Shown here in pieces: positions 18,788-57,238 of a stretch of 64,000 bases of DNA; position 1 is the first letter of the stretch, and each line of letters starts with the position of its first letter. Source of the stretch: Candidatus Bathyarchaeota archaeon. GTDB taxonomy: Archaea; Thermoproteota; Bathyarchaeia; Bathyarchaeales; Bathyarchaeaceae. Both the position numbers and the translations under genes were made by a program. Below the pieces are notes generated by a model. The model was given only the letters and a program-made list of their open reading frames with translations, made no database searches and had not been told where the DNA came from. Location: positions 12,624 through 76,623 of the forward strand of contig SOJZ01000031.1 in the NCBI GenBank assembly GCA_004376295.1, in the 5' to 3' direction.

Positions 18788-18926
18788 ATAAGGCTAAAAA
18801 ACAAGAAAGCATGAACCATAGACAAAATGGCTTTGAAACTGCATGCATGCAGAGTAGTTTGGTTAGTGTGGGGTATGTTAGAGAGCGGTTAGGAGAGAGA
18901 GAATTTCCGTCCGTAATTATTAAAAG

Positions 18927-18948
18927 TGGACAAACGCGAGTTTGTCCA
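18927..18948. terminator. Stem-loop between convergent genes
   Basis: TGGACAAAC-gcga-GTTTGTCCA, a 9-bp perfect stem flanked by TAATTATTA on both sides. Function not established. Confidence 0.3.
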
Positions 18949-19050
18949 TAATTATTACAAGTATTAATGGCAATGTTAAAAGGAGAAAGTTGAATCATGA
19001 AGATTGAGGTTTGAAAAATATGCACCCTCTGTTGATTGAAATAGAAGATA

Positions 19051-19482
19051 TCAGTATAGCCTTTTCTCTACCAGCTTGGACAGATATTTAGCTACTATGA
19101 ATGCAATAACATACGAGGAAATGAAAACGAGGTAGAAATAAGGGCCTTCAAAAGTATATTCCATAAAAAACTTAGAAATCATTCCAATAACAGCAAAAAT
19201 TGCGAAGCCCAGCGCCATACCAATAGCTAGTGTATAGAATCGTCTTATAGTTTTAGGAGTGCCACCCACAGTCAAATAGTAGGCAAGGCTGAGAGCTACA
19301 AGCATCGCAATGGATGACAAAACTATATGGAGAGGATCAACAACCTCAGGTATGTTGGGCCACAGAGTCGGGGATATGAAAATGCGAATAAAAACCCCAG
19401 AAATGAAAATAAGAGAAAAAAGGATTAGGAGATTTTTACGGGACATCCCTACCATCGCACACCCCAATATCAGTATGGGCAA
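19051..19482 (-). CDS. Membrane protein (4 TM)
   Basis: 143 aa, hydrophobic. Confidence 0.5.
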   Translation of the reverse strand: MPILILGCAMVGMSRKNLLILFSLIFISGVFIRIFISPTLWPNIPEVVDPLHIVLSSIAMLVALSLAYYLTVGGTPKTIRRFYTLAIGMALGFAIFAVIGMISKFFMEYTFEGPYFYLVFISSYVIAFIVAKYLSKLVEKRLY

Positions 19483-19557
19483 CAGCAGTTCTTACATGCC
19501 AAATGGGAATCGCTCTTATCTTGAATGGGGGTTCCCGCACCATCGCTTGTCACACTT

Positions 19558-19767
19558 CTATAATTGCCTACCTTTAACAGCCTTTAACTTAAAAAATACA
19601 ATTAAACCTGAAATGATGCTAACAAAAAAAAGGAGGAACGTCGTGTATGGTGTTATAAAGTCGGGCACAATGCGGAATGGTGAATAGAAGGAAAACAGAG
19701 GATAAAGAAGCGTAATAATAATTACCGTGGTTACTAATCCTACTGCAAGAGGATGTTCCTTCAGCAT
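19558..19767 (-). CDS. Small membrane protein (2 TM)
   Basis: 69 aa, hydrophobic. Confidence 0.4.
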   Translation of the reverse strand: MLKEHPLAVGLVTTVIIITLLYPLFSFYSPFRIVPDFITPYTTFLLFFVSIISGLIVFFKLKAVKGRQL

Positions 19768-20070
19768 CCTTTAAATCCTCAATAATATTGTAAATCATGC
19801 TCACTTATATTTCTGATCTATGCATGCATAATTTGTCCCGTTTTGTCCCAAAGAAAGGCTAAAATAATGGTTTTTCAGACATATTTACACTATATTTAAA
19901 CATATATTAATCCACATCCGAGCTTTAAGGGATAAAATGAAAAGGAGGAACGTTACAGAGACAAATAAATTGGGGAGTCTTTCCTTTACGCCAATTGTCA
20001 TTATGTGAGGAGATCAAAACAAAAGACACCAAGCATAAATTCTTGACTTTCCTCAATAACGTCATAGTCA

Positions 20071-20586
20071 TTGGTGATCGTGTTGAAAATTACAGATCGG
20101 CTGTCAATTGTGTGTGCCGTGACCATCGGTGGGTTGTTAGTAGCGTGTCTATGTGGTTCCTGTTTGCTATACTTTCAGCTTCTTAGATCAGAACAAAATG
20201 GGGCTGATCCGAATTTATTGTTCATAAATCTTCATTATGCCCAACAAAACATGATCCTTCTTCAGACTGCTACAGCTTCGCTGGGCGTGTTAACGTCTTA
20301 CTTTTCAATTTACATGATGGAAAGACCGTTGAGCTGGCATGACAGGCCTAAGTCAACTCTAGCTGCTTTTCCGGCGATTATCATTCTTATGCTCTTTTTG
20401 CAAATCACTCCTTATCAGCAGATCTCAAGAAGCTTGGTGCTCGTTGACTATGACCTACAGCAGGCTGTGATGTCAATATCTATCTTAAAGATTTTTGCGA
20501 TCGGTCAGATTGCACTTTGGACTATTTTTCTTGCCTTATTCATTTTTTCTTACGCAAAGGTTCTTAGACGAGTCAGGTCGTTATAA
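20071..20586 (+). CDS. Membrane protein (about 4 TM)
   Basis: 171 aa, hydrophobic. Confidence 0.45.
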   Translation: MVIVLKITDRLSIVCAVTIGGLLVACLCGSCLLYFQLLRSEQNGADPNLLFINLHYAQQNMILLQTATASLGVLTSYFSIYMMERPLSWHDRPKSTLAAFPAIIILMLFLQITPYQQISRSLVLVDYDLQQAVMSISILKIFAIGQIALWTIFLALFIFSYAKVLRRVRSL

Positions 20587-20795
20587 TCTATTTAAGTTTG
20601 TCTTCCAATATCTGGTGAACAAATCTTTTTGCATCGCTAAACTGTTTTGAGGTAGCAAGGATACCGAAAATTGCAAAAAATATTGTAGTAATGATCATTG
20701 AAGTGTTTCTTCTAGTTGCTTTACTTTTTACCAAACTTCTCTCCATAGGAATGTTTATATTGTCAGCCTTTAAAAGCTTACTATAGGAATTGATT

Positions 20796-21257: not shown

Positions 21258-21260
21258 AAA

Positions 21261-22156: not shown

Positions 22157-22176
22157 GTTTAATCAATTGATTAAAC
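22157..22176. repeat. Perfect 20-bp palindrome GTTTAATCAATTGATTAAAC
   Basis: Read directly. Sits between the convergent genes 21261..22070 and 22231..22815. Confidence 0.6.
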
Positions 22177-22230
22177 CGTCTTAATCAGTAAGGTAACCAA
22201 AGTTCATCGCACTCAAATCTCGAATGCCCA

Positions 22231-22815
22231 TCATTTGATATGCAAGTCTTCTAAGGAAAGTTCTCTTTCCAAGGCTGAAAGAAGAGTTAATGTTTCTTCA
22301 TGTCTTCTTTTCGCAATCTTTTTTGCAGTTTCGGTGTTTAGCAAAGGATAAATGGCTTTCAATTCTTTGAAAGAACGCTTAACAACCAAGTCAAATGGTG
22401 TATTGCCAAACCAATGAAATGCTCTAACCACACCCAAAACTCCTAGTATGTCGATCTTGTCAGCGTCCCAAACTATTCTCTCTTCTAAGGTTTCTAGTTT
22501 ATCCCTAAAATCAAGATCATGATTGAGCACTATCTTGGTTACCTTTTCTCTCCTTTCTTTAGGATACTTGATCTCTTTCAAGACCTCATTAGCCAATTTA
22601 GCTCCAGTTTCGTGATGTGGTTTACCAACAGTCCATCCAACATCATGTAGAAGGGCTCCTATTTGAACTAGTTCTACATCTGCATTCTCTTCTTTAGCCA
22701 GAAAAGTTGCTGTCTTGAAGACTCTTTTCACATGCTCGAAAGAATGAACACTATCTTTAATTGATGCCATCTTCTCTTTTACAATACTTTCAAGATTCCC
22801 CAATGAAAAACCCAT
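22231..22815 (-). CDS. HD-domain metal-dependent phosphohydrolase
   Basis: 194 aa; HSFEHVKRV ... GALLHDVGW (H...HD signature). Confidence 0.8.
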   Translation of the reverse strand: MGFSLGNLESIVKEKMASIKDSVHSFEHVKRVFKTATFLAKEENADVELVQIGALLHDVGWTVGKPHHETGAKLANEVLKEIKYPKERREKVTKIVLNHDLDFRDKLETLEERIVWDADKIDILGVLGVVRAFHWFGNTPFDLVVKRSFKELKAIYPLLNTETAKKIAKRRHEETLTLLSALERELSLEDLHIK

Positions 22816-23022
22816 AGCTACTAACCTTCAAAAGACACATCTAGTATCCATCGAAAATAAAAATGCATGCATGCTCGCATTTTCATCTGATGATCTTGGT
22901 CTTGATTTTGAATGTTGGAGTTGCAATGAGTATGATTGTCTTTTTCCTGATGGAATTGATCACTTTATACTATTCAAGGGCATGGAAAAAACAAGCTACG
23001 TGCGCACGCAGAGACTGTAGAT

Positions 23023-23340
23023 TCATTGACTTATTCCAGTCTCTACATCCTCGGTGCCCCACAATTCTATATTTTCTACGTTGTCTAACCCGAGCAATAG
23101 TATCACTTTGCCGGCTTTTTTGTATGCACCTAATTGCTCTACGAACCTCTCAGTTTTGGTTTTAACCTCTACTGCTAGCATCTGGGTATTTTTCTTCGCA
23201 ATGACGTCTGGATACCTATCCCCAAAAGAATTTACCTCATGAACTGGAAAATCATCATAATCATATTTCTTGTCGTATATTTTATACCCCAGATTCTTGA
23301 GTTTCCTTTTTGCTTTCTCAACTAGCCTATCATGAAACAA
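23023..23340 (-). CDS. Small PD-(D/E)xK-like (restriction-endonuclease-fold) protein
   Basis: 105 aa; ...YPDVIAKK...MLAVEVKTK... fits a D...ExK arrangement. Weak call made by eye. Confidence 0.4.
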   Translation of the reverse strand: MFHDRLVEKAKRKLKNLGYKIYDKKYDYDDFPVHEVNSFGDRYPDVIAKKNTQMLAVEVKTKTERFVEQLGAYKKAGKVILLLGLDNVENIELWGTEDVETGISQ

Positions 23341-23571
23341 CTAAACTAACAGAGAAACATTCTAAAGGCTCATACAGTTAGTCCGTCTATACCTTCCCAA
23401 GCGTGAACAAAAATGAGAACGAAACGTATGCATGCATTAAATTTGTAGGATTAAACATTCTACATAACATTGATAGTCTTCCAAAAGCTACAAAAATTGT
23501 GCACGCATTTAATGCCGATTGTATATTATACGTGAAGCGGTGCAAAACTCATTCTGACTGATAATGTTCAG

Positions 23572-24336
23572 GTGGCTGTAAACTTGAAGATTTTGAAATT
23601 GTCAGGAACTTACCTGAAAAGAAAAGCGTACCAGTACTTAATTTTAGGGATTTTGTGTCTATTTGTCTTTGTTGCCATATTTCTTACCACTGACCCAAAA
23701 TTGCCTCTTTATATTGACCTAGGGCGGTACCACACCACTCGTGTGTTAGTAATGATATTTCCGCTATATGGGGTGCTCCGTTTCTACCGGTTGCATCGTG
23801 CCTACCAGCAAGGCTTTGAAGGAGAAAAACAAGTTACCAAAGTTCTTTCTTCAACTTTGAGCGACGACTATTTTCTCATCAATGATGTTCAGCTTGTTGC
23901 GGGTAAAAGAAGCAACATTGACCATGTTGTTCTGGGACCAACCGGAATATTTGTATTGGAAACCAAAAACCACAGTGGCAAGATTACTTGCTATGGTGAT
24001 AGTTGGACAGGTATAGGTCAAAACCCTTCTACACAGGCACGAGTCAACGCTTCGAGAGTCTATAAGGTCATTAGGGCTTCTGGAATCTTTGTATCAAAAC
24101 TTCCATGGATTCAAGCGGTTGTAGTTTTCGCTAACAAAAAAGTAGAATTAGAAGTGCGCAAAGCCCCATCCAAGGCTAAAGTTCTAAAGATTGTTGAATT
24201 GACCAATTACATAACCCAAGAAACAACACGTCTATCCGCTCAAGAAATTGAGTTAATGAGCAAGGAGATTCTAAACATGCACGAATGTGGGGGGTTAAAT
24301 TTTAATCCAACCAACCAACCAACCAAGACGGAATAA
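23572..24336 (+). CDS. Membrane-anchored NERD (nuclease-related domain) protein
   Basis: 254 aa; 2 N-terminal TM, then GEKQVTKVL...IDHVVLGPTGIFVLETKNHSG. The last 13 codons lie in direct repeat R1. Confidence 0.75.
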   Translation: MAVNLKILKLSGTYLKRKAYQYLILGILCLFVFVAIFLTTDPKLPLYIDLGRYHTTRVLVMIFPLYGVLRFYRLHRAYQQGFEGEKQVTKVLSSTLSDDYFLINDVQLVAGKRSNIDHVVLGPTGIFVLETKNHSGKITCYGDSWTGIGQNPSTQARVNASRVYKVIRASGIFVSKLPWIQAVVVFANKKVELEVRKAPSKAKVLKIVELTNYITQETTRLSAQEIELMSKEILNMHECGGLNFNPTNQPTKTE

Positions 24337-24365
24337 AACTTTAATCCAACCAACCAAACCAACGG
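24297..24365 (+). repeat. Direct repeats R1 (24297-24331) and R2 (24335-24365), core TTTAAYCCAACCAACCAA
   Basis: aaattttaatccaaccaaccaaccaaccaagacgg / aaaactttaatccaaccaaccaaaccaacgg. A third copy lies at 25069-25099. Confidence 0.8.
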
Positions 24366-24455
24366 TGCGCGCGCATAGAAGAAGCTTCTATTACGCAATT
24401 TCATAAACCCTTTATGACTTGAAAGCTAACTGGTTTCAAAAGGAGGAAGATGTAA

Positions 24456-24932: not shown

Positions 24933-25068
24933 ACTGTTGGACCAGTTAGAATCTGCGCCTCAACTTCCCTTTTTTGTGTGTGCTCAAATTGTTAATGCAA
25001 CCTGCGCGCACTGCAATGCATTATGTTATAGTATGATACATTGTATGTTGTGAAGGAAGGAAGGAATT

Positions 25069-25099
25069 AAAATTTAACCCAACCAACCAACCAACTTGG
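25069..25099 (+). repeat. Direct repeat R3
   Basis: aaaatttaacccaaccaaccaaccaacttgg. In the NERD reading frame it would encode LKFNPTNQPTW..., against LNFNPTNQPTK at the NERD C-terminus. Confidence 0.75.
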
Positions 25100-25229
25100 A
25101 CGACGACGGGACGGGGATAGACGGGGGGAAACGACCAACCAACGACGGGGACAACGACGGACGACGACGGACGACGGGGACAACGACGACGGACGGGGAG
25201 AAACGACGGACGACGGTTAACGGACGGTC
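25097..25229 (+). repeat. T-depleted GACG-rich imperfect tandem tract with six G3-G6 runs
   Basis: About 120 nt containing a single T (in gatag). Units end in GGGG, e.g. acaacgacggacgacgacggacgacgggg / acaacgacgacggacgggg. Confidence 0.8.
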
Positions 25230-25450
25230 CTATACCATGTATACCCCTGATTTGGATAGGTTCTTAATGGAATAGGAATGAGGAAGGATGGAATATAGAG
25301 AGTATAATGAGTGAGGGGTAAAAAAGCAGAGAAAACTTACCCCCTCATAACAAAAATACGAGGGGTAAAATTCACACAAAAAATTACCCCTCATCATTAA
25401 AGAACGTTCATAGTACAGGGGGAAAATGCATGCACGGTATAGAAACATAC

Positions 25451-26155
25451 CTAATAAACGCGCTCGGGCTTTGGATGCCCAAAGCCGTGCTTAGCGAATA
25501 ATTTCTCATTGACTGCGTTGTATAGTGCTATCTCTAGTACCGTGGAAATAGCTTGAAGAAATTCCACAGCTTCATGCTTGACGCCGCAGATATCACATGG
25601 TCTATCATGATCTGGGAAGAATCTCTTTTTGTCACCTTTCTTGCACTCTTCAATCACCAAATCAATTGTTTGTGCCCACTTTTCTTTCAATTCCGAAACG
25701 GCCTTTTCTATTATGGGATCGATAGCGTCCGTAAAATCCTGAGCCACAAAGGACTGTCCAAAAGGGACTTCCTCAACATAAATACGAGTTGCAGTTCCAA
25801 TAAGCTCGATTCTTTCTGGTTTGCCGTGGACAATGACTTCTCTGTATTTTTCCTCTGTCTTCTTTTTCCCTGGATGTTTTTTGGGAGGTCTTCGGCTTTC
25901 CACCCACGAAGCATCTTGACTTGGACCCTCTAAGAACTTAATAGCCCCATAAACAGTGTTTTTTGAAAGGTTCAGTTGTTTCATCATCTCTTTAGCTGTA
26001 AGACCAGCACTTCCCGCATCTCTCAAGGCTTCTATAATCTCCCAGTTTGTACGGGAACCTAGCGCCCTCGCCTCCCTGTAGTCTGTAACTGGAATGGAGA
26101 GGAAATAACGGTTCATCTTCTTTTCTTTCGATGCCAAGTGAATCACGTTTCCCAT
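25451..26155 (-). CDS. Winged-helix (ArsR/TrmB-like) transcriptional regulator
   Basis: 234 aa; NWEIIEALRDAGSAGLTAKEMMKQLNLSKNTVYGAIKFLEG; divergent from a chain of small plus-strand ORFs. Confidence 0.6.
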   Translation of the reverse strand: MGNVIHLASKEKKMNRYFLSIPVTDYREARALGSRTNWEIIEALRDAGSAGLTAKEMMKQLNLSKNTVYGAIKFLEGPSQDASWVESRRPPKKHPGKKKTEEKYREVIVHGKPERIELIGTATRIYVEEVPFGQSFVAQDFTDAIDPIIEKAVSELKEKWAQTIDLVIEECKKGDKKRFFPDHDRPCDICGVKHEAVEFLQAISTVLEIALYNAVNEKLFAKHGFGHPKPERVY

Positions 26156-27192: not shown

Positions 27193-27323
27193 CAAGTGCA
27201 AGCAAAAACAAAAAGGAGCAGTCTTTGAAGAAGCTGCAAGAAAAGCTGACTTTGTATGAGTTAAACCTCTATGAAGAAGCATTCAAGCTTGATAGAAAAA
27301 GAAAAACTACCTATATCCAGTAA
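27189..27323 (+). CDS. Hypothetical 44-aa protein
   Basis: MTSASKNKKEQSLKKLQEKLTLYELNLYEEAFKLDRKRKTTYIQ; ATGA coupling to the upstream ORF. Confidence 0.3.
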   Translation: MTSASKNKKEQSLKKLQEKLTLYELNLYEEAFKLDRKRKTTYIQ

Positions 27324-27484
27324 TGTATGCATGCGCGCTACGGGGCTATGGAGCCATTTTAGGCGATCTTATGCGCGCAATAAGAGTTTCGACAACAATT
27401 CTGAGGGCTTCCTTCGCATATTCGCTGACTCTTGCTGATAACTTCTTTTTCAACATTTTCTTTCCGCGGGCGCGCGCCTAGATG

Positions 27485-31785: not shown

Positions 31786-32271
31786 CGAATCTAACAATTA
31801 ACATAGTTTAATGGGCTTTTTTGTGTTCATGAATATACCTATCATCATATTCGTCTGGCCCAGTCTGCAAATATATCACCTTATAAAACTATGATGGTGG
31901 TTTTTTCTTAAATCTTAGTGCACACATTTTTCTAGCATCTTCCCTTTTTCTGGAAACCAAAAAAGTAGGTTAATTATCTGGTCGATTACAGGTAACGCCT
32001 TCTTGTTGCCTGTGGAAAGAAATGATATCAATAACTGTTTCTAGATAAACAATCGCCAAAAACGCAATTGCCAATGTAGCAATCGAACCACTATCCGTAT
32101 ACTAAAATGAGAAAAAACTAATTTAAGATATTTTATCAGAAAAAACCATGAAAGAGCCGTTTTGAAATTACGCCGTTAAAACTTTCTAATCAATGCAATA
32201 AATGGGTGGTAAAGAAGTGAAGGTATTATAAAATGGCCTCTGCATGTATGCAAGTGTAGAATAGAGTTAAT

Positions 32272-32772
32272 CTACCATGTTTCTATAAGCTCTGCCAAGT
32301 ATTTTAGACCGAAGGGTTTAGCGACAAATCCCTTAAGGCTGACTAGCATGTTCTCGCTGCCTTCTATGAGCTCGCCAAGTTCTGCCTTAAGATCATTTAT
32401 GAACAGGTCATACTCTGCGTAGCTTCTGTGCAAAGAGATCATTACAGCATCCTTTCCCATACCTTGAGCTTTTGAGGCAAATATAATGTTAGGATGTTTA
32501 TTCAACCATTTTTGTCCCTTCTCAATCAGTTCTTTTGATCTTGGCACCTTGTAAACGCCCGTGGTAATAGCCATGATTTCAAATCCTATCTTAGCGAAGT
32601 CGGGGATGATCGTGAAGTCTCTTATGGTTCCATTCTTCACAAGCTTACTTCTCGTTCTGGTTACAGTTGGCTGTGACACTCCAACAAGCTCTGCTAGTTT
32701 CCTATCACTCTTCTTGGAATCCTTTAGCAATTCCACAAGAACCTTTTTCATTACCTTTTTCATCAGCATCAC
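32272..32772 (-). CDS. Lrp/AsnC-family transcriptional regulator
   Basis: 166 aa; HTH LAELVGVSQPTVTRTRSKLVKNGTI plus a C-terminal RAM-like domain. Confidence 0.8.
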   Translation of the reverse strand: MMLMKKVMKKVLVELLKDSKKSDRKLAELVGVSQPTVTRTRSKLVKNGTIRDFTIIPDFAKIGFEIMAITTGVYKVPRSKELIEKGQKWLNKHPNIIFASKAQGMGKDAVMISLHRSYAEYDLFINDLKAELGELIEGSENMLVSLKGFVAKPFGLKYLAELIETW

Positions 32773-32893
32773 CGCTCAACTGCATGCATTTGTATCACCT
32801 GCAAATTAACCTTTCTGCACGTACATGCAAGCCCTCTCTTCTTTTTTTCTATCGTTAGTTTTTTAGATGCATGCATGGCGCTCAAAGCGTGGC

Positions 32894-33367
32894 TCATACT
32901 TGAAGATAGAATCCCCGAATTATGTCCTGTCTCGAGACGATCCCAACGAGCTTCTTTTCCTTGTCAACAACAGGCAGTCTGTTGATGTTTTTCTTCTTCA
33001 TTATACTTGCCGCTTCAACTATGCCTGTATCCATTGAGACGGTTACGAGCTTTTGAGTCATCACTTCAGCTACACTTTTGCCTCCAATATCCTTTATTGC
33101 ATTCAGCATTTGTTTTAGCTTGTAATCTTTGATACCTAGGCTTATCTGAAGTGGCAGGTAGTGTTCAAGCTTCGTTAATATCGGAGACCGCTCACCTAAG
33201 CGGATAATATCTGACTCGCTGACAAGTCCAATCACTTCTCTTTTCTCGTTAACCACTGGTGCGCCGCTAATATTGTACTTATGAAAGGTCTCACAAACTT
33301 CTCGTATAGTGGTTTCAGGGCTGAACGTTATTACTTCTTTCGTCATTACATCTCTCACTAGAGGCAT
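32894..33367 (-). CDS. CBS-domain pair protein
   Basis: 157 aa; two CBS repeats (VMT.EVIT...; GIVSRQDII). Confidence 0.85.
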   Translation of the reverse strand: MPLVRDVMTKEVITFSPETTIREVCETFHKYNISGAPVVNEKREVIGLVSESDIIRLGERSPILTKLEHYLPLQISLGIKDYKLKQMLNAIKDIGGKSVAEVMTQKLVTVSMDTGIVEAASIMKKKNINRLPVVDKEKKLVGIVSRQDIIRGFYLQV

Positions 33368-33379
33368 GACATCTCACCT

Positions 33380-33850
33380 TTAGCCTTTTGTGATTGCATG
33401 TATAATATCTTCCCTGGCAACTATCCCAACTAGCTTTCCATCCTCATCTACGACTGGCAGATGGTTCACATCTTTCTCACACATTATTTCCGCAACTTTT
33501 TCAATCAAAGTTTCAGGGAGAATAGTGATTGATTTTTTCGTCATAATCTCTTTGATCTTCACCTTTTGAGCTCTCTCGAAATCCCTAAAAAGCTCATCCA
33601 CTTCGATTTTAAGTAACCTATCTGATATTATTGGCGGCAAAGCGGAGGCAAGTGTACCTATCGAACTTTCGAATATTTCACTTATCAGGTTTACCAGATT
33701 TTTCTCACTTACAAACCCAACAACTTTTTCGTCATCCATAACTGGTGCTCCATTGATGTTATTCTTTAGAAACTTTTCTGCAACTAACGCTGCTGTGTCA
33801 TCAGGGTTCAATGTTATTACTTCCTTCGACATTATATCCCTTGCCTTCAA
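33380..33850 (-). CDS. CBS-domain pair protein
   Basis: 156 aa; paralogue of the preceding gene. Confidence 0.85.
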   Translation of the reverse strand: MKARDIMSKEVITLNPDDTAALVAEKFLKNNINGAPVMDDEKVVGFVSEKNLVNLISEIFESSIGTLASALPPIISDRLLKIEVDELFRDFERAQKVKIKEIMTKKSITILPETLIEKVAEIMCEKDVNHLPVVDEDGKLVGIVAREDIIHAITKG

Positions 33851-34078
33851 AAACTCACCTTTTATTCTTCATGCATACCATGTTTAAAAAGTTACGGTAT
33901 CATTTTATGCATGCATAAGCAAATTGAAAAGACGTGGTGTGAAAATAGGCATCGCAACAAGTGTAGCCAAGCCCTATTGGACGGAAGCAGAAACATACCC
34001 AAATGTGACAAACGACAAGTTAGAACTAACAAAAGAACAAGTGAGACTGCTTGATTTGTTCACTGCTGATTAGCTGAG

Positions 34079-34135
34079 TTACGGACATGCATGCATACAG
34101 CGTTTAACATAGATCGTTTACGTTTTAACATTCGA
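34079..34135 (+). repeat. Intergenic repeat carrying an ATGCATGCAT core (copy 1)
   Basis: gttacggacatgcatgcatacagcgtttaacatagatcgtttacgttttaacatt. Homologous to 53470-53535, about 85 percent identity by eye. Confidence 0.7.
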
Positions 34136-34510
34136 AAGTGTAAAAAACGGGTAAAACTCCAAAAATCGATCGTGCGCGTTTTTTTAGAGGTGGTGAGGTT
34201 TCTCCATACTTGGCTAAGCTTTCTAAAACCTAAATAAACTTGGTATCGACGTATTGGATATAGGTGTAACCGACTAATCGCAATAGATTCTTTTGGGTGT
34301 TATCTAGGTCTGCAACATTCACGAATAGACATCACCTTCCATCTTTCACAAGTTCATACGGTTTCCGACATAGAAAATTGTTAGTGAAGTTGATCTTTAG
34401 ATGTGTTTAACCGAGAAGGTGTGTATTATTTTTAAATCGTTATTCATAAAAATCTATGTTCATTTTACATGCATGCATATTGCATAGTGAAAAAGAAGGG
34501 GAAGAAGTAG

Positions 34511-36623: not shown

Positions 36624-36638
36624 TCTTCACTATTCTAA

Positions 36639-39636: not shown

Positions 39637-39670
39637 ATAGAGAACGCTTAATAATCAACTAACAAAAAAT

Positions 39671-42002: not shown

Positions 42003-42109
42003 GTTTTTCCTCCGTGAAGCGGATAGAAGTTAGACTATTCGGTTTAATACTTTTTGCGGCGTTCTAAGTGTGTGAGTATGGTTTCAGCCTGTATTCTTAC
42101 AGAATTTTT

Positions 42110-42236
42110 GTCTGGTTTGGAGTTTGGTGTATGCGTGTTTTTGTTATGTTGTTTGTGTGTTTCTCTCTCTTATCGGCCCCCTACCTAGGGGGGTCCTTTG
42201 GTGGGTTTGGTTTAGGGCTTGCTTTGGCTTCTGTTT
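42110..42236 (-). repeat. A/C-rich leader repeat (right copy, uninterrupted), upstream of fumA
   Basis: Appears G/T-rich on the plus strand. Contains the near-palindrome GGCCCCCTACCTAGGGGGGTCC. ORFs 42068..42256 and 42124..42327 in it look spurious. Confidence 0.65.
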
Positions 42237-45163: not shown

Positions 45164-45604
45164 GAACGCGCACATTCACTCGACCGTGTTCTATAGGATT
45201 GTAGGGATCGCAGGCATTGAACAAGATTTTAGCATTGTCAAAAAAAGAATTCAGACTGGAAAAATCGGTAAGAGACAATATTTGAATGATTTGAAGACTA
45301 GGATTTCAAGAAAAGGCTGAACCCGTATTTTGAAAAGAGGGTTGAGGTTCCTAGGATCAGAATAGGTAAAAGGCAGACTATGAGACTTTGATCAACGATG
45401 AGGCTTTGTTGCTCGCGAAATATCTTAGGGATGAAAGGAGGACATGGGTTCCACGGTTTGCTCTTCCAAAATAGCGTGCGATATACATAGGATGATAGAT
45501 GTTATGCGCGCGTTCATTCTGCGCATTTGATGTATGTGGGAGCTGCGGCGCGCGCTAGAGTCTATGAAGCATTTAATTGATGCTTTCTTTGTAATAATTC
45601 TATC

Positions 45605-46489
45605 ATGAAAAAATATGCACAGGTATTGTTGTATCTTTTTTGGCTTGAACTAAAGAGAATTATATTTGGAGTAAAGTATTCTGTAGAAGTTGATGTGACG
45701 GACAACTGTAATCTTAGATGTAAACATTGCTATCATTTTCACGGTAAAGACGATTTTAAAACACAAGAACTATCCATACATGTTTGGGAAAAAAGGTTCA
45801 ATGAACTCTACAAGTCAGGAATAAGGAACATTCTTTTGGTTGGAGGTGAGCCTGCGCTCAGGATTGATGTTCTTATGCTCGCTGACAGGATATTTCCTTT
45901 TGTTTACGTTATTACAAACGGAACAATAAAGATACCAGAAGAATTCAATCATAGATTATATGTTTCAATAGATGGGTCTAGAAAAACAAACGATTCACTC
46001 AGAGGGAAGGGTGTTTTTTCAAGAGTAATGAAAAACTATTCAGGGGACAAACGTGTTGTTATCAATATGACAATCACGAGAGATAATTACAAAGAGCTTG
46101 AGGATGTTGTAAAAATTGCAAAAGAGAGTGGTTTCAAGGGTGTTGTGTGTAATATATGCGCAGGTGGAACCGATGTTAGTGTTCCCATGGTTGTAAGAAA
46201 AAAAGAGAGAAAAACTATAATAAAAGAACTGAAACGAGTGAAGGCATCATACCCAAAAGATTTTCTTTTGAGCAAAGCGATGATAAAATGGTATGAATAC
46301 CCAGATCATAGGGGGTTATGCCACTGGGGCGATGAAGTATTACATTTTGATGTTTCATGGAACAGAAGAAGGTGTTTTGGAAACAATGCGGACTGTTCCA
46401 ATTGCGGGTGTCTGGCCGGGGCCTTTCAGAGTCCTCTAAGAATGCTAAGGCATCTAAGAGAGATTATGAAAATAGCTGTATGTTCATAA
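45605..46489 (+). CDS. Radical SAM protein with Cys-rich (SPASM-like) C-terminus
   Basis: 294 aa; TDNCNLRCKHCYHF; C-terminal CFGNNADCSNCGCLAG. Confidence 0.8.
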   Translation: MKKYAQVLLYLFWLELKRIIFGVKYSVEVDVTDNCNLRCKHCYHFHGKDDFKTQELSIHVWEKRFNELYKSGIRNILLVGGEPALRIDVLMLADRIFPFVYVITNGTIKIPEEFNHRLYVSIDGSRKTNDSLRGKGVFSRVMKNYSGDKRVVINMTITRDNYKELEDVVKIAKESGFKGVVCNICAGGTDVSVPMVVRKKERKTIIKELKRVKASYPKDFLLSKAMIKWYEYPDHRGLCHWGDEVLHFDVSWNRRRCFGNNADCSNCGCLAGAFQSPLRMLRHLREIMKIAVCS

Positions 46490-46546
46490 GCGAAACTTAA
46501 TGATGCACGCGCAAAGAATACTTCATGACACATCAAATTTCTTATT

Positions 46547-53389: not shown

Positions 53390-53469
53390 GCTGTCAAAAA
53401 CTCTCCAAGCGTAACATGATCTCGCTACCTAGCATTAAATTGTGCGTATATTAATATTAATGTATTTTA

Positions 53470-53535
53470 AACGGTTACCTTTGCATGCATGCATAAAGGG
53501 TTTAACATAGATCGTGGACATTTTAACATTGTTTC
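53470..53535 (+). repeat. Intergenic repeat carrying an (ATGC)n core (copy 2)
   Basis: aacggttacctttgcatgcatgcataaagggtttaacatagatcgtggacattttaacatt. Homologous to 34079-34135. Confidence 0.7.
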
Positions 53536-53693
53536 GTGTCCAATTTGTGTACAATTCCCAAAATCAGGGGGTTGATAGAGTATCAGAGTGGAACTGGACT
53601 CCTTGCATGGGTGCATAGAACATTTCTCCTCAACTTATTAATGCAACTTCAAGCAAGATAATATGTAGAGTATAAGAGAGAGGGTGAATAGTC

Positions 53694-54503
53694 TTGAATG
53701 AAAAACAGTTTATGGTAGGCGCTTTGATTGGTTTAATGCTATTAGCACTAGCATTGGCTCCGTTGTCTGGTCAGGAAGGTGGTGGATATAACCCTTGGGC
53801 AGATTTGGATGGTGATGGAAACATAGATGCTGACGACTTGTATCTTCTGGCAAATGCGTATGGTACTTCAGGAGAACCCCTCAATCTTCCTATGGCTTTG
53901 GAATATGACAGCGGATGGGTTAACATCATCGACAAACTAGGTCAGCATTTCAACATAACCCACAACCTGAACAGCTCGAACACAATCGTGCAGATTAGAG
54001 GAAAAACAACATTGGCAGGCCCAGCCCATCGGAGACATTTCGATGGAACAGGCTACACAGCGGGATGGAACCAAACATACGGAGGAGCAAACGCCGACCA
54101 TGCTCGTTCCGTGATTCAGACAGCTGATGGAGGATACGCAATAGCAGGCTACACCTACTCGTATGGTGCTGGTGGTTGGGATTCCTGGCTGGTTAAGATT
54201 GACTCTGCTGGTAACATGCAGTGGAACCAAACATACGGAGGAACATTCGATGAAGACACCTGGTCCATGGTTCAGACGAGCGATGGTGGATACGCGTTGG
54301 CTGGCTCCACCCATTCCTATACTGCTGGTGGCTTGGATTTCTGGCTGGTTAAGACGGATGCGTTCGGATTAACAGAGGCTTTCGAGTTGGGATTAGCTAT
54401 TACGGGTCGGACAGCGGACACTTTAGAACTGTATAAGGGCGCAATCGACCCCTACTGGAACTATGTGCGCATCAGGATATGGGTAGCCAAAGAAACCCCA
54501 TAA
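53694..54503 (+). CDS. Secreted protein with dockerin/EF-hand-like DxDxDG motif and tandem ~47-aa beta-propeller-like repeats
   Basis: 269 aa; signal peptide; ADLDGDGNIDADDLYLLANAYG. Repeats WNQTYGG...DGGYA.AG.T.SY.AGG.D.WLVK.D x2. Confidence 0.65.
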   Translation: MNEKQFMVGALIGLMLLALALAPLSGQEGGGYNPWADLDGDGNIDADDLYLLANAYGTSGEPLNLPMALEYDSGWVNIIDKLGQHFNITHNLNSSNTIVQIRGKTTLAGPAHRRHFDGTGYTAGWNQTYGGANADHARSVIQTADGGYAIAGYTYSYGAGGWDSWLVKIDSAGNMQWNQTYGGTFDEDTWSMVQTSDGGYALAGSTHSYTAGGLDFWLVKTDAFGLTEAFELGLAITGRTADTLELYKGAIDPYWNYVRIRIWVAKETP

Positions 54504-54859
54504 CCACAATGCATGCGTGTGCGCGCAAATGATAGGCTTCAGCAGCTTTGGGAAGAGACCTCTTCCAAGAGTATGTAGGTAGAAATCTGATTGCTCACTG
54601 GCAGCCCTATTTCAAAGCCCCTCTTCATTTTCCGGTTGTTACAGCTAACTCTCTTAAAGAATGTTCAAACCTGGAATGCATGCATGACAGCAGAACATTA
54701 ACGATAACTGAAGTATGGTCGGTATACATTCTAAAAGGGCTGGTGTGCTGGACGTAACCCGCCTATAGGGCATTATAGAATTATGCTCTATCTCTCTTAC
54801 TTCGTTTAGTTCTTTCATTTTCTCATCTCGCATGTAGGCTTATAGGTGGTGTTTTATTT

Positions 54860-55060
54860 TTGGGTTTGCTTGTTTTAGGTCTTTTTTTCATGCATGCCTG
54901 TCATTGTGGGTGGGGGAAGGGGTACAAGGGGAAACTGCGCTTCGGGGGGTTTCCCCCTGTTCCTATGGCTTCGGGTGGGTGTGGCAATATGAATAGCCGA
55001 GCGACCAGCTCGGCTGGTATCATGCCCTCAATTCCAAGTAAAAGGTATAGCAAACACTAG
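54860..55060 (+). CDS. Small Gly/Cys-rich peptide with hydrophobic N-terminus (speculative)
   Basis: 66 aa. TTG start preceded by ATAGGTGGTGTTTT, the same string that precedes 55108..55290. Confidence 0.25.
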   Translation: MGLLVLGLFFMHACHCGWGKGYKGKLRFGGFPPVPMASGGCGNMNSRATSSAGIMPSIPSKRYSKH

Positions 55061-55107
55061 AATAGGTGATATCCATATATACGAAACAAAAATAGGTGGT
55101 GTTTTTT

Positions 55108-55290
55108 ATGAAGGAAAAAGATGAGCATAGTCCTGTCGTGCTGAAGTTGGTTTCGAAAGGGAAGAGCGGAGTTCAGATCTCAAGTGTTCCCATGAAGAAG
55201 TTAAAGGCTCTAGAAGAGTGGCATCAGAAGAACTATCATCCCTGCAAATGGCGAATAAGCAAGGATGGGAAAAACCTCTTACTGATGTAA
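55108..55290 (+). CDS. Small hypothetical protein
   Basis: 60 aa from ATG 55108 (MKEKDEHSPVVLK...); AGGTGGTG lies 8 nt upstream. Confidence 0.3.
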   Translation: MKEKDEHSPVVLKLVSKGKSGVQISSVPMKKLKALEEWHQKNYHPCKWRISKDGKNLLLM

Positions 55291-55593
55291 GGCATGCATG
55301 TATGTGATGTGCATTCATCTATTCTTTAACCATTGTGCAACTCTTTTTAGATGTGGAATTGCACTTTGGTCGATTATTGGAACTTCTCTTGCACCCATCT
55401 TTTTGAGGGATTGATATTTAGCCATTTGTGAATAGATAACTGCATGCATGCATACCATTATTCAATCTTATACCTCTAAGTTTGAATGGTAGTTTCATAG
55501 CAAAATACGTATAAATTCAAGGGATTTCTGCATGTATACATGCAAAAAAAAGTAATATATAGCAGACGTAAAGACAATTATGGGGTTAATAGA

Positions 55594-56076
55594 ATGCCAT
55601 TTACAGTTTTTGTAAGTCATAGCACTAAGGATATGGACATAGTCAATGAACTTGCAAAATGGTTGGAGTTAAATGGAGTTGTTGCTCATGTAGCTCAATT
55701 ACAGACAGAAGCAGGAAAACCTTTGGCTGAAACGATTTCAGAGGGACTGGAGTCAAGCAATTGTGTTCTCGCGATTTTAACGAAAGATGGCGCAAGGTCA
55801 AAGTGGGTCAATCAAGAAATTGGATATGCAAAGCGAGCTGGAAAAATGGTTGTGCCAATAGTAGAAGAAGGGGTAAGGGTAAAAGGGTTCCTTGAAAGTT
55901 TGGAATATATCCCTTTCGACAGACGTAATCCGTATGACGCTGTGACTCGAGCTGTGGAATATCTCAGAACGCTTGCTGTCAGAAAGGAGGAAGAAGAAAG
56001 AGCAAGAGCTATCTTTGGAGGATTACTTTTTCTCTTTGGTCTTCTAGCCCTTGCAGCTGTAGCTTCTGGAGAGTGA
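55594..56076 (+). CDS. TIR-domain protein with C-terminal transmembrane anchor
   Basis: Start moved to ATG 55594 (MPFTVFVSHSTKDMDIV...). SKWVNQEIGYA contains the conserved TIR Glu. Tail IFGGLLFLFGLLALAAVASGE. Confidence 0.8.
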   Translation: MPFTVFVSHSTKDMDIVNELAKWLELNGVVAHVAQLQTEAGKPLAETISEGLESSNCVLAILTKDGARSKWVNQEIGYAKRAGKMVVPIVEEGVRVKGFLESLEYIPFDRRNPYDAVTRAVEYLRTLAVRKEEEERARAIFGGLLFLFGLLALAAVASGE

Positions 56077-56182
56077 GATAACGTCTATCAAGTTAGCTTG
56101 GGAGTTCCTGAAAAGAGCTCTGAGGTGCCTAGAGGAAGCTAAAAGGCATTTTGACAATCCAAGCCATGTCGTAGATTATCCT

Positions 56183-56524
56183 TTGTGTATAACCCGAGCT
56201 CATGAATGCGTTGAATTTTCTCTAAAGGCAGCATTGTTATTGGTAGGAAGAAGACTTCCTCACACTCATGACTTAAGTGATGTTCTAACAGGAGCAATTA
56301 AGAAATTTCCAGAGTGGTTCAAAGAAAAGGTTCCTTCGTTTGCAGTTCATTCCAAGGTTATGAACGTCATTAAAGTCTATGCAACGTACGGCTACGAACC
56401 TACGAGTACACCTCCAAAAGAGCTTTTCAAGGAACACTACGCAAATATGTGCGTTAAGAATGCGGAAGACGTTTGGTCTAATTGCCATCGTCTTTACCAT
56501 GAGATACAATCGCTAAAACCGTAA
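56183..56524 (+). CDS. HEPN-domain protein (annotated start truncates the domain)
   Basis: Rx4H motif GRRLPHTHDL. The frame is open from 56063 and encodes a plausible first HEPN helix (ITSIKLAWEFLKRALRCLEEAKRHFD), but has no ATG/GTG/TTG before 56183. Confidence 0.7.
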   Translation: MCITRAHECVEFSLKAALLLVGRRLPHTHDLSDVLTGAIKKFPEWFKEKVPSFAVHSKVMNVIKVYATYGYEPTSTPPKELFKEHYANMCVKNAEDVWSNCHRLYHEIQSLKP

Positions 56525-56573
56525 TGCATGCATGCATTTTATAGACATGTAAAACTATCTTGAGGCTGTATGC

Positions 56574-57185
56574 ATGGATGCATCTCGTTTACATTTTTTA
56601 GATGTCATTCGAGGAGTTGCTGTTTTATGGATGGTTGCTTTTCAAATAGCCGACGCATTCGGATTTTATGACCTTTACGGCTCTTCGTGGTTTCAGTTCG
56701 GGCTTAATTGGGTTCGGCTCTTTTGGTTTGTAAGTGGCTTTTCAGCCGTCCTTATGTATAGAAAATATAGTGTCAAGCGGTTTTGGTCTAAAGTTGCTTA
56801 TCGTTTCACTCTCTTCTCGTGTGTTGGGTTGTTGTTGGCCTTAGTCGTTCCATTTAATATAGACGTTACGCAAATCTGGTTTTATGAAGCGGTTTCAAGT
56901 ATAGGTTTGAATCTTATCTTCGTATCTGTCCTCGTATATGTTAATCGACTGTCCGTGTATGTAGCTTCTTTATTCGTGCTGCTGACGGCTCAAATAACCA
57001 TAGCTTTAAACGTTATGTTTAACCCTCTCGAAGTTTTAGCCTTCATGATTCTCGGCTCGATTCTCGCAACGAAAGACTTCAACTTAAACATTAAAAACAG
57101 ATTTTTAGAGTTTCTTGGTCGTCACGGTTTACTCCTTTACGTCTTGCATTTTCTGATTATAGCATGTAAGAGGTTTTTCTCATGA
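56574..57185 (+). CDS. Membrane protein, DUF1624/acyltransferase-3-like (short)
   Basis: 203 aa; LHFLDVIRGVAVLWMV N-terminal motif, about 6 TM. Confidence 0.5.
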   Translation: MDASRLHFLDVIRGVAVLWMVAFQIADAFGFYDLYGSSWFQFGLNWVRLFWFVSGFSAVLMYRKYSVKRFWSKVAYRFTLFSCVGLLLALVVPFNIDVTQIWFYEAVSSIGLNLIFVSVLVYVNRLSVYVASLFVLLTAQITIALNVMFNPLEVLAFMILGSILATKDFNLNIKNRFLEFLGRHGLLLYVLHFLIIACKRFFS

Positions 57186-57238
57186 ACACAAACACAGCTA
57201 TTAGAACAAGTTCAACGATGCATGCATGTGTGCAATCT

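Follow-up and report, generated by a model that had tools for sequence, protein, structure and literature searches.

Short (ATGC)n tracts as probable joints between interchangeable gene cassettes in the accessory DNA of a Bathyarchaeia lineage

Results

Tracts and genes of the accessory stretches

The window, i.e. the whole 64,000-nucleotide stretch of DNA from a sediment archaeon analysed here, has its closest genomes in the Bathyarchaeia, and the methanogen host implied by an earlier reading made from the sequence alone (the sequence-only reading) is thus wrong. Tracts of the form (ATGC)n with at least 8 bases occupy 23 loci, 22 of which lie within two accessory stretches, at 18.8-37.4 kb (array 1) and at 53.5-57.3 kb. 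The features of array 1, in which no integrase was found, are as follows (features listed without a strand are unstranded).

18840-18851, tract TGCATGCATGCA, left edge of array 1, between convergent genes, 52 nt past a stop
19820-19829, tract ATGCATGCAT, in a divergent intergenic region
22159-22874, minus strand, HD-domain gene cassette (gene 22231-22815)
22159-22174, palindrome TTAATCAATTGATTAA, left HD-cassette junction, not an ATGC tract
22863-22874, tract ATGCATGCATGC, right HD-cassette junction
23428-23437, tract ATGCATGCAT, between divergent Hjc-like and NERD genes
24365-24377, GC-type alternating tract GTGCGCGCGCATA, 28 nt past the NERD stop
25426-25434, tract ATGCATGCA, 16 nt past the stop of the wHTH gene 25451-26155 (minus strand)
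27323-27338, mixed tract ATGTATGCATGCGCGC
27470-27477, GCGCGCGC, 8 nt past the stop of a GHKL ATPase gene
32241-32252, degenerate tract TGCATGTATGCA, 19 nt past the stop of the HTH gene 32272-32769 (minus strand)
32781-32789, tract TGCATGCAT, 11 nt before the HTH gene start
32816-32829, degenerate tract TGCACGTACATGCA, left joint of the mini-module
32831-32866, plus strand, 36-nt T-rich mini-module between two tracts
32867-33916, minus strand, CBS-CBS gene cassette with both flanking tracts (genes 32894-33367 and 33380-33832)
32867-32877, tract ATGCATGCATG, junction A, 16 nt past the CBS operon stop
33907-33916, tract ATGCATGCAT, junction B, 74 nt before the CBS operon start
34086-34096, tract CATGCATGCAT, head of the 82-nt repeat D5
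34468-34478, tract CATGCATGCAT, 32 nt past the DUF2330 stop, conserved in contig L001
36097-36109, tract GCATGCATGCATG, 5 nt past the stop of a 74-aa gene
36380-36393, tract ATGCATGCATGCAT, overlapping the stop of a 78-aa gene
37366-37376, tract ATGCATGCATG, right edge of array 1, overlapping the TGA stop of gene 37070-37366

The second stretch belongs to an integrated element of 5.1 kb, which carries eight tracts and one degenerate tract. The sole locus outside the accessory stretches lies just beyond it, inside a conserved gene, and is probably incidental.

53451-53463, plus strand, left copy of the 13-nt direct repeat TTAATATTAATGT (attachment core)
53464-58563, integrated element with an integrase and a tract-separated gene array, missing from relatives L109 and L119
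53482-53494, tract TGCATGCATGCAT, 19 nt inside the left element end, head of the second D5 copy
54509-54527, mixed tract ATGCATGCGTGTGCGCGCA, 5 nt past the stop of a 269-aa gene
54676-54686, tract ATGCATGCATG, in a non-coding stretch
54889-54897, tract CATGCATGC, with T7 directly before it
55292-55306, tract GCATGCATGTATGTG, 1 nt past the stop of a 64-aa gene
55441-55453, tract TGCATGCATGCAT, upstream of a TIR gene
55529-55544, perfect tract-like palindrome TGCATGTATACATGCA, overlapping the TIR start codon
56524-56537, tract ATGCATGCATGCAT, overlapping the TAA stop of a HEPN gene
57218-57234, tract ATGCATGCATGTGTGCA, between an acyltransferase gene and the convergent integrase gene, 4 nt away from the stop of the latter
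57239-58492, minus strand, tyrosine integrase of the element, 417 aa, with a Phage_integrase domain
58564-58576, plus strand, right copy of TTAATATTAATGT
59159-59168, CATGCATGCA, inside the conserved 357-aa gene, retained in L119

Abundance and sequence context

(ATGC)n is the top over-represented word of the window. The decamer ATGCATGCAT gives 17 overlapping matches at 15 loci, against 0.06 copies expected from dinucleotide-preserving shuffles, an enrichment of more than 200-fold; the number of 17 was reached in none of 100 shuffles. The four (ATGC)n 8-mers stand at 18-26 times and the 10-mers at 140-225 times their expectation, the highest ratios in the window. All 15 loci named in the sequence-only reading were thereby confirmed, with two starts displaced by one base (19820 instead of 19821, and 33907 instead of 33908), and every close variant that it had listed is present at its place. 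Relatives L109, L119 and L111 have such tracts in their accessory DNA too, and the tracts are 15-fold enriched across 476 kb of related metagenome loci.

Alternating sequences of other kinds are enriched as well, with 4 runs of (CG)n of at least 8 bases against 0.28 expected, and 28 alternating purine-pyrimidine runs of at least 12 bases against 6.4 expected. The GC-only relatives of the tracts that the earlier reading had listed are present; they are enriched and located at gene ends, but no junction was found at any of them. GTGCGCGCGCATA at 24365 and GCGCGCGC at 27470 possibly form a minor tract class.

Such over-representation of a short exact palindrome, together with the overlapping sites for common methyltransferases that the tracts contain, recalls HIP1 (GCGATCGC) of cyanobacteria, which occurs genome-wide, including coding regions, at about one copy per gene (PMC5861425), and which is linked to orphan methylases and recombination efficiency (PMC4390886; bioRxiv 10.1101/2024.09.10.611283). 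By analogy, the tracts could be highly iterated palindromes with a link to DNA methylation or restriction-modification like the one proposed for HIP1, with methylation of the overlapping CATG, GCATGC and ATGCAT sites affecting repair or uptake. Both sequences are over-represented by orders of magnitude, with a debated function and a link to recombination. However, the tracts are not genome-wide; they are length-variable, act as breakpoints (see below) and are confined to accessory intergenic DNA, the core having none in its 5.5 kb of intergenic sequence and one in coding sequence, although the intergenic length of the accessory part is similar (6.6 kb). Furthermore, isolated CATG is neither depleted nor enriched (280 observed against 236-295 expected), and searches of part of the window ORFs with Pfam, NCBIfam and PADLOC found no methyltransferase. 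We therefore regard a methylation-linked palindrome as quite unlikely.

Motifs with an identical core, TGCATGCA and CATGCATG, are bound by ApiAP2 transcription factors in Apicomplexa or by B3 factors in plants (the RY element), and share the intergenic enrichment of the tracts. These are eukaryotic promoter elements, whose resemblance to the tracts is one of sequence only, and this analysis gave no indication of a related DNA-binding protein or promoter role.

Placement relative to genes

In line with the mostly intergenic copies and the confinement to accessory DNA claimed earlier, the accessory tracts all lie outside genes or at the extreme edge of a gene, according to the gene calls of the public assemblies. 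A stop codon lies at most 35 nt away for 11 of 22 tracts, and at most 5 nt away for about seven. Oligo-T runs often adjoin the tracts.

This placement would suit tracts that serve mainly as regulatory or 3'-end signals, i.e. sites of a dimeric protein (a repressor, insulator or roadblock) or transcript-end elements, with recombination as a by-product of having numerous identical short sequences. We hold this to be possible though not favoured, and it is compatible with the tracts being cassette joints. It draws on their palindromic and intergenic nature, the nearby stop codons, the frequent oligo-T, and the clustering of several tracts within a single divergent promoter region, L132 having three at 6845-7084 and the window three at 32781-32867, ahead of the HTH gene. 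On the other hand, tract length (9-15 nt, or 2.25-3.75 units) and phase vary, the flanks are not conserved, the spacing to TATA-like boxes or start codons is not fixed, and convergent, tandem and divergent spacers all carry tracts. The RNA form folds at 0 to -2.7 kcal/mol, which gives no terminator hairpin. The Z-DNA or cruciform behaviour suggested earlier has no measured support, and the tract alone hardly folds. Moreover, regulation alone does not explain the breakpoints at exact tract edges described below.

Cassettes in alternative contexts

In contigs of other samples, homology to window cassettes, at 99-100% identity, gives way to unrelated sequence at the first or last base of the tracts at 22863, 32867, 33907, 36097 and 36380. 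A change of cassettes exactly at the tracts, the check that had been proposed earlier, is thus what we found, and the comparison supports the first of several options offered then without a choice between them, that of cassette-boundary or recombination sites.

Among the matches listed, 15 contigs of at least 10 samples carry the CBS cassette at 99-100% identity, in at least four contexts. At junction A (32867), three distinct left contexts meet at the first base of the tract, which is a breakpoint for six contigs, and contig L211 begins there. At junction B (33907) there are four right contexts, those of the window type, L211, L215 and L210, the last of which lacks a tract. Next to this cassette, the 36-nt mini-module lies between tracts in three contexts, those of the window and L214, and, inverted, that of L222; at position 32816, L214 has CATGCATGC and L222 has GCATACATGCAT, each with different DNA beyond.

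The HD cassette occurs at more than 99.6% identity in three contexts (window/L221/L223, L220 and L222). On its right, the homology of L220 stops at 22874, and that contig has a 14-nt tract with unrelated DNA beyond it; on its left, the palindrome TTAATCAATTGATTAA at 22159 is the exact divergence point of L222 from the window and the place where L220 ends. The homology of L209 stops at 36099, within the tract at 36097, while L222 holds window positions 36380-36980 in another context that begins exactly at the tract at 36380. An AbiV cassette of L209, L212, L213 and L214 is likewise bounded by tracts.

Counted over HSPs of at least 95% identity, 11 of 16 internal breakpoints lie at distance 0 from a tract, compared with 0.5% of the window that is this near, and an all-against-all comparison places 45 of 90 breakpoint positions at tracts, with a background of 0.3%. 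The tally for the few cassettes sampled, among the exact-protein matches listed, is about eight independent tract junctions against four non-tract events. The rearrangements that bypass the tracts are the insertion of the 5.1 kb element, bounded by TTAATATTAATGT, an indel of a radical-SAM gene (45246-46538), the junction at TTAATCAATTGATTAA and the deletion of 8.5 kb at a microhomology of 7 nt. No indel junctions at tracts were found among relatives L109 and L119, which are at 93-95% identity, closer to species level.

Two tract length polymorphisms of exactly one ATGC unit (4 bp) were found between near-identical strains; for instance, the tract at 36097 has 13 nt in the window and 9 nt in L001, a 99.55% identical contig. 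These polymorphisms, together with the variable phase and length, might suggest a functionless mutational by-product, such as slippage-prone microsatellites or transposon footprints, and the alternative contexts might be assembly artefacts. We consider this very improbable: 2.25-3.75 units are too short for ordinary microsatellite dynamics, the placement at gene ends is non-random, and conserved transposon ends are absent beside the tracts. An artefact in particular is unlikely because the tracts are shorter than assembly k-mers and hence should be unable to cause chimeric joins; in addition, identical junctions come from at least five samples and independent assemblers, and the CBS junctions from two assembly pipelines and at least 10 samples.

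The integrase of the 5.1 kb element

In relatives L109 and L119, the empty site of the element has a single copy of TTAATATTAATGT. The 417-aa integrase stands at one end of a co-oriented, tract-separated array, and of 71 related integrase loci 10 have a tract in the 400 nt downstream of the integrase stop, while none has one upstream. This arrangement raises the question of whether the array 53464-58563 is an integron-like platform whose integrase itself recombines the tracts. We find this unlikely, since the element itself demonstrably inserted at TTAATATTAATGT and not at a tract, most related integrase loci are free of tracts, array 1 has no integrase, and the NCBIfam matches of the protein at E of at most 0.001 include no integron-integrase model. 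Against the XerA-type model it scores 58 bits, with a cut-off of 220. As cassette genes of any kind regularly have a tract behind their stop codon, the integrase gene may be just another cassette.

Discussion

We propose, with a probability of roughly 80%, that the (ATGC)n tracts join gene cassettes which can be exchanged independently of one another within the flexible genome of a Bathyarchaeia lineage. A cassette holds between one and three genes together with about 40-90 bp of DNA upstream of them, and the tract typically lies 0-35 nt past its stop codon; the same cassette, at 99-100% identity, has different neighbours in different samples, and small modules also occur inverted. Strand exchange would take place inside the tract and between any two tracts. 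Because a tract is self-complementary and repeats every 4 bp, two tracts could pair with each other in both orientations and in registers shifted by 4 bp, and such pairing would explain the 4-bp changes in tract length. The outcome would be deletion, inversion or replacement of a cassette, or its insertion via putative circular intermediates. Many of the cassette contexts could also stem from differential deletion from a longer ancestral array, gain and loss being indistinguishable here, and the tracts may also serve a second purpose, either regulatory or at 3' ends.

The exchange rather probably depends on a putative tract-specific enzyme, either a recombinase or a nuclease whose cuts leave self-complementary ends of 4 nt, although no recombinase or nuclease was tied to the tracts in this analysis. 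A break at the tract followed by general short-homology repair is a more doubtful route.

Among known systems, integrons likewise have arrays of mostly single-gene, largely co-oriented cassettes, a recombination sequence right after each stop codon, cassettes found in different arrays and a cargo with many defence-like and unknown genes. The occurrence of arrays beside an integrase as well as without one is a further likeness to integrons and to CALINs, the attC clusters lacking an integrase that have been reported in Archaea (PMC9668308). In contrast to attC, an imperfect inverted repeat of 55-140 bp with R and L cores, the joint here is a tetranucleotide palindrome of 9-15 bp that is unable to fold as a hairpin; moreover, no IntI-type integrase is seen here by NCBIfam matches, the cassettes bring their own upstream region, and inverted modules occur. 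As attC sites, hairpins or fixed operators, the tracts were rejected.

In T4-type phages, short conserved intergenic motifs (PeSL) surround non-essential genes in hyperplastic regions, and their recombination leads to the insertions, deletions and replacements by which close relatives differ, with mini-circles as the proposed vehicle (PMC2839356, PMC4122927). The tracts similarly flank exchangeable genes, and recombination between them would separate close relatives. However, PeSLs are composite units of promoter and stem-loop terminator that recombine by homology in phages, whereas the tracts are 9-15 bp long, have neither a stem-loop nor a conserved promoter, and reside in an archaeal chromosome. 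Cassette shuffling at the tracts looks like an undescribed mechanism, with anti-virus genes making up many of the cassettes. As the cargo is largely defence-like, the arrays would act as shuffled defence islands.

Form, abundance and placement of the (ATGC)n tracts

The over-represented unit of this DNA is a run of ATGC repeats rather than one fixed 10-mer. The tracts, i.e. (ATGC)n runs of at least 8 bases, each named here by its start position, are 9-15 nt in length (the longest, of 15 nt, amounts to 3.75 units); each of the four phases is represented among them, and their flanks are not conserved. All the 15 loci at which the sequence-only reading had placed the 10-mer ATGCATGCAT were borne out, albeit with two coordinates off by one, and they correspond to 17 overlapping matches, compared with 0.06 expected from dinucleotide-preserving shuffles of the window; the variants listed in that reading are all present as well. 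In a k-mer census of the window, the four (ATGC)n phases are the top over-represented 6-, 8- and 10-mers, and the 10-mers occur at 140-225 times expectation, an over-representation of the HIP1 type, i.e. that of a short exact palindrome at 15- to 300-fold. The features of the window to which the tracts are related are as follows.

Features of the window referred to in the text
18.8-37.4 kb: array 1, the first accessory stretch
22159-22874: HD cassette, within array 1
32867-33916: CBS cassette (a CBS-CBS pair), within array 1
53.5-57.3 kb: second accessory stretch
53464-58563: 5.1 kb element, which contains the second accessory stretch
57239-58492: tyrosine integrase, at one end of the 5.1 kb element

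Tracts are found at 23 loci, 22 of which lie within the two accessory stretches; the sole exception, tract 59159, is inside a conserved gene and is kept in a relative. The core part of the window contains 0 tracts in its 5.5 kb of intergenic DNA and 1 in its coding DNA. As every intergenic tract is accessory, despite the similar length of accessory spacer (6.6 kb), the tract is not a general intergenic feature of this genome. The GC-type relatives, which had been grouped with the tracts, are indeed in excess, with four (CG)n runs of at least 8 bases in the window versus 0.28 expected, but no junction was found at any of them. Alternating purine-pyrimidine runs of at least 12 number 28 versus 6.4 expected, and 12 versus 6.4 when the (ATGC)n runs are left out of the count.

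Cassette neighbourhoods change at the tracts

Tracts are the places where the neighbourhoods of cassettes change. This can be seen in contigs of public assemblies (L-numbers below, which also denote relatives and metagenome loci) that encode proteins identical to those of the window; the matches listed cover few cassettes of one lineage. Contigs from other samples are 99-100% identical to single window cassettes, and their surroundings differ. In at least six contigs the CBS cassette aligns from position 32867 onwards, exactly where tract ATGCATGCATG begins, and another contig starts there; the alignment runs as far as 33916, where tract ATGCATGCAT of junction 33907 ends. Beyond 33916 there are four continuations among the matches listed, the one in L210 being without a tract, and to the left of 32867 there are three unrelated contexts among the matches listed.

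Left contexts of the CBS cassette at tract 32867
Context 1: window type
Context 2: AbiV-like HEPN gene, in at least five contigs from five samples
Context 3: that of L210

Furthermore, homology to the window ends at 36099, in tract 36097, in L209, and at 22874, the end of tract 22863, in L220, where it is followed by methyltransferase and ABC-transporter genes that are also separated by tracts. L222 contains window positions 36380-36980, beginning exactly at tract 36380. The AbiV cassette, known from L209, L212, L213 and L214, has tracts on both flanks. In both the window and L214, two tracts enclose a T-rich piece of 36 nt (32831-32866), which is inverted in L222. Hence the check proposed earlier, for gain or loss of cassettes exactly at tracts, turned out positive at 22863, 32867, 33907, 36097 and 36380, and the reading then put first, that of cassette boundaries, is upheld by near-identical contigs that change neighbours exactly at these sites.

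Quantitatively, 11 of the 16 internal end-points of alignments with at least 95% identity fall at distance 0 from a tract, and positions no more than 2 nt from a tract make up 0.5% of the window; in an all-against-all comparison, half of the end-point positions (45/90) are at tracts, versus a 0.3% background. Counted as independent events, these amount to about eight alternative junctions at five tracts, versus four events elsewhere. Degenerate tracts (TGCATGTATGCA, TGCACGTACATGCA and GCATACATGCAT) also sit at joint positions, which suggests that tracts decay by point mutation. We do not consider chimeric assembly a credible cause of the junctions, since no tract is as long as an assembler k-mer and different samples and pipelines gave the same junctions. 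In the viral contigs the CBS-cassette junction is absent, a scan for the 14-mer gave only scattered single matches at chance level, and the window integrase has no close relative.

The tracts also vary in length. Over 2 kb, L001 is 99.55% identical to the window, and tract 36097 is 9 nt long in L001 versus 13 nt in the window, one ATGC unit accounting for four of the five L001 gap positions; similarly, the 3' tract of the AbiV cassette is 10 nt long in L212 versus 14 nt in L209, L213 and L214. Such unit-length polymorphism between close strains is that of a tetranucleotide microsatellite or contingency locus, and the long many-unit arrays in genes or promoters by which such loci switch expression were not found, the maximum being 15 nt.

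Cassette anatomy and cargo

The anatomy of the cassettes was derived from public gene calls carried over to the window, which replaced cruder ORF-based spacer classes that had mislabelled many tracts as genic. A stop codon lies within 35 nt of half of the accessory tracts (11/22) and within 5 nt of about seven, and several tracts overlap the stop, TGATGCATGCATG at 37366 and TAATGCATGCATGCAT at 56524 among them. On the other side, the tract is located 11-97 nt upstream of the next start, so that the cassette includes its own upstream region, a putative promoter. The genes of the arrays are mostly co-oriented, on the minus strand in 25.4-37 kb and on the plus strand in 53.7-57.2 kb, and the modules range from 36 nt to about 5 kb, typically with one gene. 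The cargo is defence-like: it comprises NERD, TIR/ThsB-like and AbiV-like proteins and a GHKL ATPase paired with a phosphoesterase that matches anti-phage models. Other genes of the cargo encode small membrane proteins, HTH regulators and proteins with CBS or HD domains.

Host and related genomes

The window carries the nop5, trm1, fwd, mch and ftr genes. The closest relatives of its Mch are in two Bathyarchaeia assemblies, L109 and L119, with 93% amino-acid identity, and a protein assigned by name to 'Candidatus Bathyarchaeota archaeon' has the same sequence as its integrase; the host is a member of the Bathyarchaeia, not a methanogen. The core blocks of L109 and L119 are 93-95% identical to the window. 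With respect to gene content, a radical-SAM gene (45246-46538) is found in the window only, a radical-SAM and fumarase block (39604-42160) is missing from L119, and L119 has a 3.1 kb insertion (its positions 12408-15542) at window position 43820; none of these junctions has an (ATGC)n tract. The variable regions of L109, L119 and the more distant L111 have tracts of their own.

The 5.1 kb element and its integrase

The segment 53464-58563 is absent from both L109 and L119, and the 13-nt direct repeat TTAATATTAATGT that flanks it (53451-53463 and 58564-58576) is present as a single copy at their empty site; the segment is therefore an integrated element. Besides the tyrosine integrase, it encodes a 269-aa secreted-type protein and small ORFs, and carries TIR, HEPN and acyltransferase genes. 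It holds eight tracts and one degenerate tract, and its own boundaries are non-tract, so the integrase has demonstrably used a sequence other than the tract. The inverted 10-mers GGTTACCTTT (53473) and AAAGGTAACC (58540) are located near the element ends. The integrase is a generic Xer-like tyrosine recombinase, which scores 58 bits against the XerA-type model of NCBIfam (cut-off 220) and has no integron-integrase model among its NCBIfam matches at E ≤ 0.001. No integrase was found in array 1. On these two counts, an IntI-type integrase beside the insertion site can be dismissed.

An 82-nt repeat, which starts with a tract and contains GTTTAACATAGATCG and TTTTAACATT, occurs at 34086-34167 and 53484-53565 with 77% identity between the copies, one of which is the first module of the element. 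It had no match in the other loci, and no direct repeat marking another integrated element was found around the copy at 34086. Four contigs from other samples end 32-43 nt past tract 34086, inside this repeat.

We have also collected 80 metagenome loci with related integrases (L126-L205; integrase identity 44-65%; 476 kb). They contain 28 tracts of at least 10 bases versus 1.8 expected, concentrated at about 40-42% G+C (e.g. seven in 11 kb of L132 and three in 2.9 kb of L145), and the first 400 nt downstream of the integrase stop include a tract in 10/71 loci, whereas upstream tracts are seen in 0/71. Since most of the integrase loci are without tracts, the tract follows the host lineage rather than the integrase family. 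Homology end-points near a tract are 1/726 among these loci, a test that is uninformative because the loci have only the integrase gene in common. Many of these contigs start just 100-500 nt upstream of the integrase start; the assemblies seem to break at the element boundary, consistent with presence/absence polymorphism in populations.

Comparison with known systems

The attC site of integrons spans about 55-140 bp and has conserved R''-L'' / L'-R' cores; it is an inverted repeat with imperfect arms that forms a single-strand hairpin. The joints described here are 9-15 bp long with unconserved flanks and a hairpin energy, as RNA, of 0 to -2.7 kcal/mol, and, judged on these features, are not attC sites. 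A hairpin-type terminator, with a stable G+C-rich stem-loop ahead of a U run, is excluded by the same energies and by the T runs, which adjoin only some of the copies, and a cruciform or hairpin role for the tracts has to be given up, the tract being too short to fold. REP/BIME elements span 20-40 nt, are imperfectly palindromic, share a tetranucleotide at their head and go with a RAYT transposase gene in the genome. The tracts are shorter, perfect repeats with no conserved head, and no IS200-like gene was present among the window ORFs scanned. Other candidates were likewise rejected: a transcription-factor operator of fixed length and position, by the variable length and phase and by distances to starts from 11 to more than 600 nt; a core promoter or BRE, by a tract-to-start alignment that shows no fixed TATA spacing; restriction-site avoidance or excess outside the tracts, by CATG being at expectation; and a transposon target-site duplication, by the lack of conserved element ends inside the tracts. 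Scans of the window for Rfam families and for tRNAs found nothing, so the tracts are not part of a known RNA and the window has no tRNA attachment site. A regulatory or 3'-end role besides that of a joint is possible.

Integron cassette arrays and CALINs are known in Archaea (PMC9668308). The CBS, HD and AbiV cassettes resemble them in that each of these gene units recurs in several contexts, bounded by tracts, and the site tends to lie at the 3' end of an ORF. The two kinds of array also share their logic, in which units of one gene each are exchangeable, point the same way and have the site behind the stop; the site and the integrase are different. In mechanism, the nearest analogue is that of the PeSLs of T4-type phages, short motifs between genes that recombine with one another, so that non-essential genes are shuffled and mini-circles arise (PMC2839356). 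In both cases the motifs flank variable genes and the exchanges distinguish close relatives, whereas PeSLs are promoter-terminator composites, made up of a strong early promoter and a stem-loop terminator, and the tracts have no conserved promoter spacing or stable stem-loop. The likeness to HIP1 (PMC5861425) is in the statistics only: in the 64 kb and the fetched loci the tract is not a genome-wide palindrome that includes coding DNA. A palindrome of the HIP1 type would go with cognate orphan methyltransferases; the window ORFs scanned include no methyltransferase. No description of an (ATGC)n cassette joint was found in the full-text literature searched.

A putative tract-specific exchange system

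The tract is a newly recognised form of cassette joint, with a putative enzyme. Strand exchange would take place inside the tract, which, being self-complementary and 4-bp-periodic, could pair with any copy, in either orientation and in shifted registers; such pairing would explain why one module is inverted and why tract lengths change by 4 bp. Cassettes differing by 0-0.5% are found in four or more contexts, and tract pairs are used far oftener than the vastly more numerous other short repeats, which favours a tract-specific enzyme. Such an enzyme, putatively a recombinase, or else a nuclease that leaves 4-nt ends able to pair with themselves, probably exists. Structure-induced breakage followed by general short-homology repair is a less likely source of the junctions; only one microhomology deletion was seen, at TCATGAA. 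The observed variety may reflect insertion or differential deletion from longer arrays.

Returning to the tract-specific enzyme, we tentatively propose, with a probability of roughly 0.4, that Bathyarchaeia own a cassette-exchange system in which a putative recombinase or nuclease cuts inside (ATGC)n and rejoins any two tracts, thereby moving single-gene, largely defence, cassettes between arrays, strains and integrative elements; as part of the same proposal, this system would be an archaeal functional counterpart of integrons that operates on a 10-bp tetranucleotide palindrome, and not on attC and IntI. Bathyarchaeia are uncultured and among the most abundant sediment archaea. If the proposal is true, the 10-bp joint would offer a simple, sequence-based way to mark out the mobile genes and the defence islands of thousands of metagenome-assembled genomes, and integron-kind cassette shuffling would have evolved with a completely different site. 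It would also point to a putative enzyme with a very short, programmable-looking target, and explain the fragmentation of the assemblies of these genomes at tracts.

Other joint-like sequences and repeats

The perfect palindrome TTAATCAATTGATTAA at 22159-22174 is a homology breakpoint in L222 and a contig end in L220, and the related TTTAATCAATTGAAG follows a stop codon in L209, L212 and L213, about 25 nt upstream of a tract; this palindrome may be a second, rarer joint sequence. An element of ~30 nt, GAGAACATAGTAAGGGTAACTACGATGACC, occurs in five contexts (window about 62472-62500, minus strand; L207 826; L220 7528; L222 1401; L197 5195), usually 3-20 nt from a tract or a degenerate tract (GCACAT). 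L223 is without 8.5 kb (NERD, HTH and GHKL ATPase-phosphoesterase genes) between the TCATGAA copies at 23330-23336 and 31827-31833, a plain microhomology deletion that truncates an Hjc-like gene.

Array 1 is bracketed by paralogous membrane proteins in inverted orientation (18095-18787, plus strand; 38415-39113, minus strand; 33% identity, E 2e-26), and its right edge carries one copy of an 80-nt direct repeat beginning with TTCACCTAGGGCTAGGCGGTGACACGCCTCC (13358-13437 and 38099-38178; 83% identical, 24.7 kb apart). A repeat family at 10653-10723, 13520-13591, 36956-36993 and 63587-63624 encodes, on the minus strand, zinc-ribbon-like fragments resembling C-x-K-C-G-K-V-I-V-E-P-K-E; frameshifts interrupt some of the copies and two are preceded by a conserved stretch, and the family looks like a small gene in several decaying copies. 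About nine tandem 10-nt units (YATCTTTTCC-like) at 39402-39489 lie about 180 nt upstream of a B12-binding radical-SAM gene (start 39671). CCAACCAACC-rich repeats and ACGACGG-type tandem repeats surround a 158-aa secreted-type gene (24295-24369, 25067-25102 and 25142-25215), and the 8-mer CCAACCAA ranks directly behind the tracts in over-representation.
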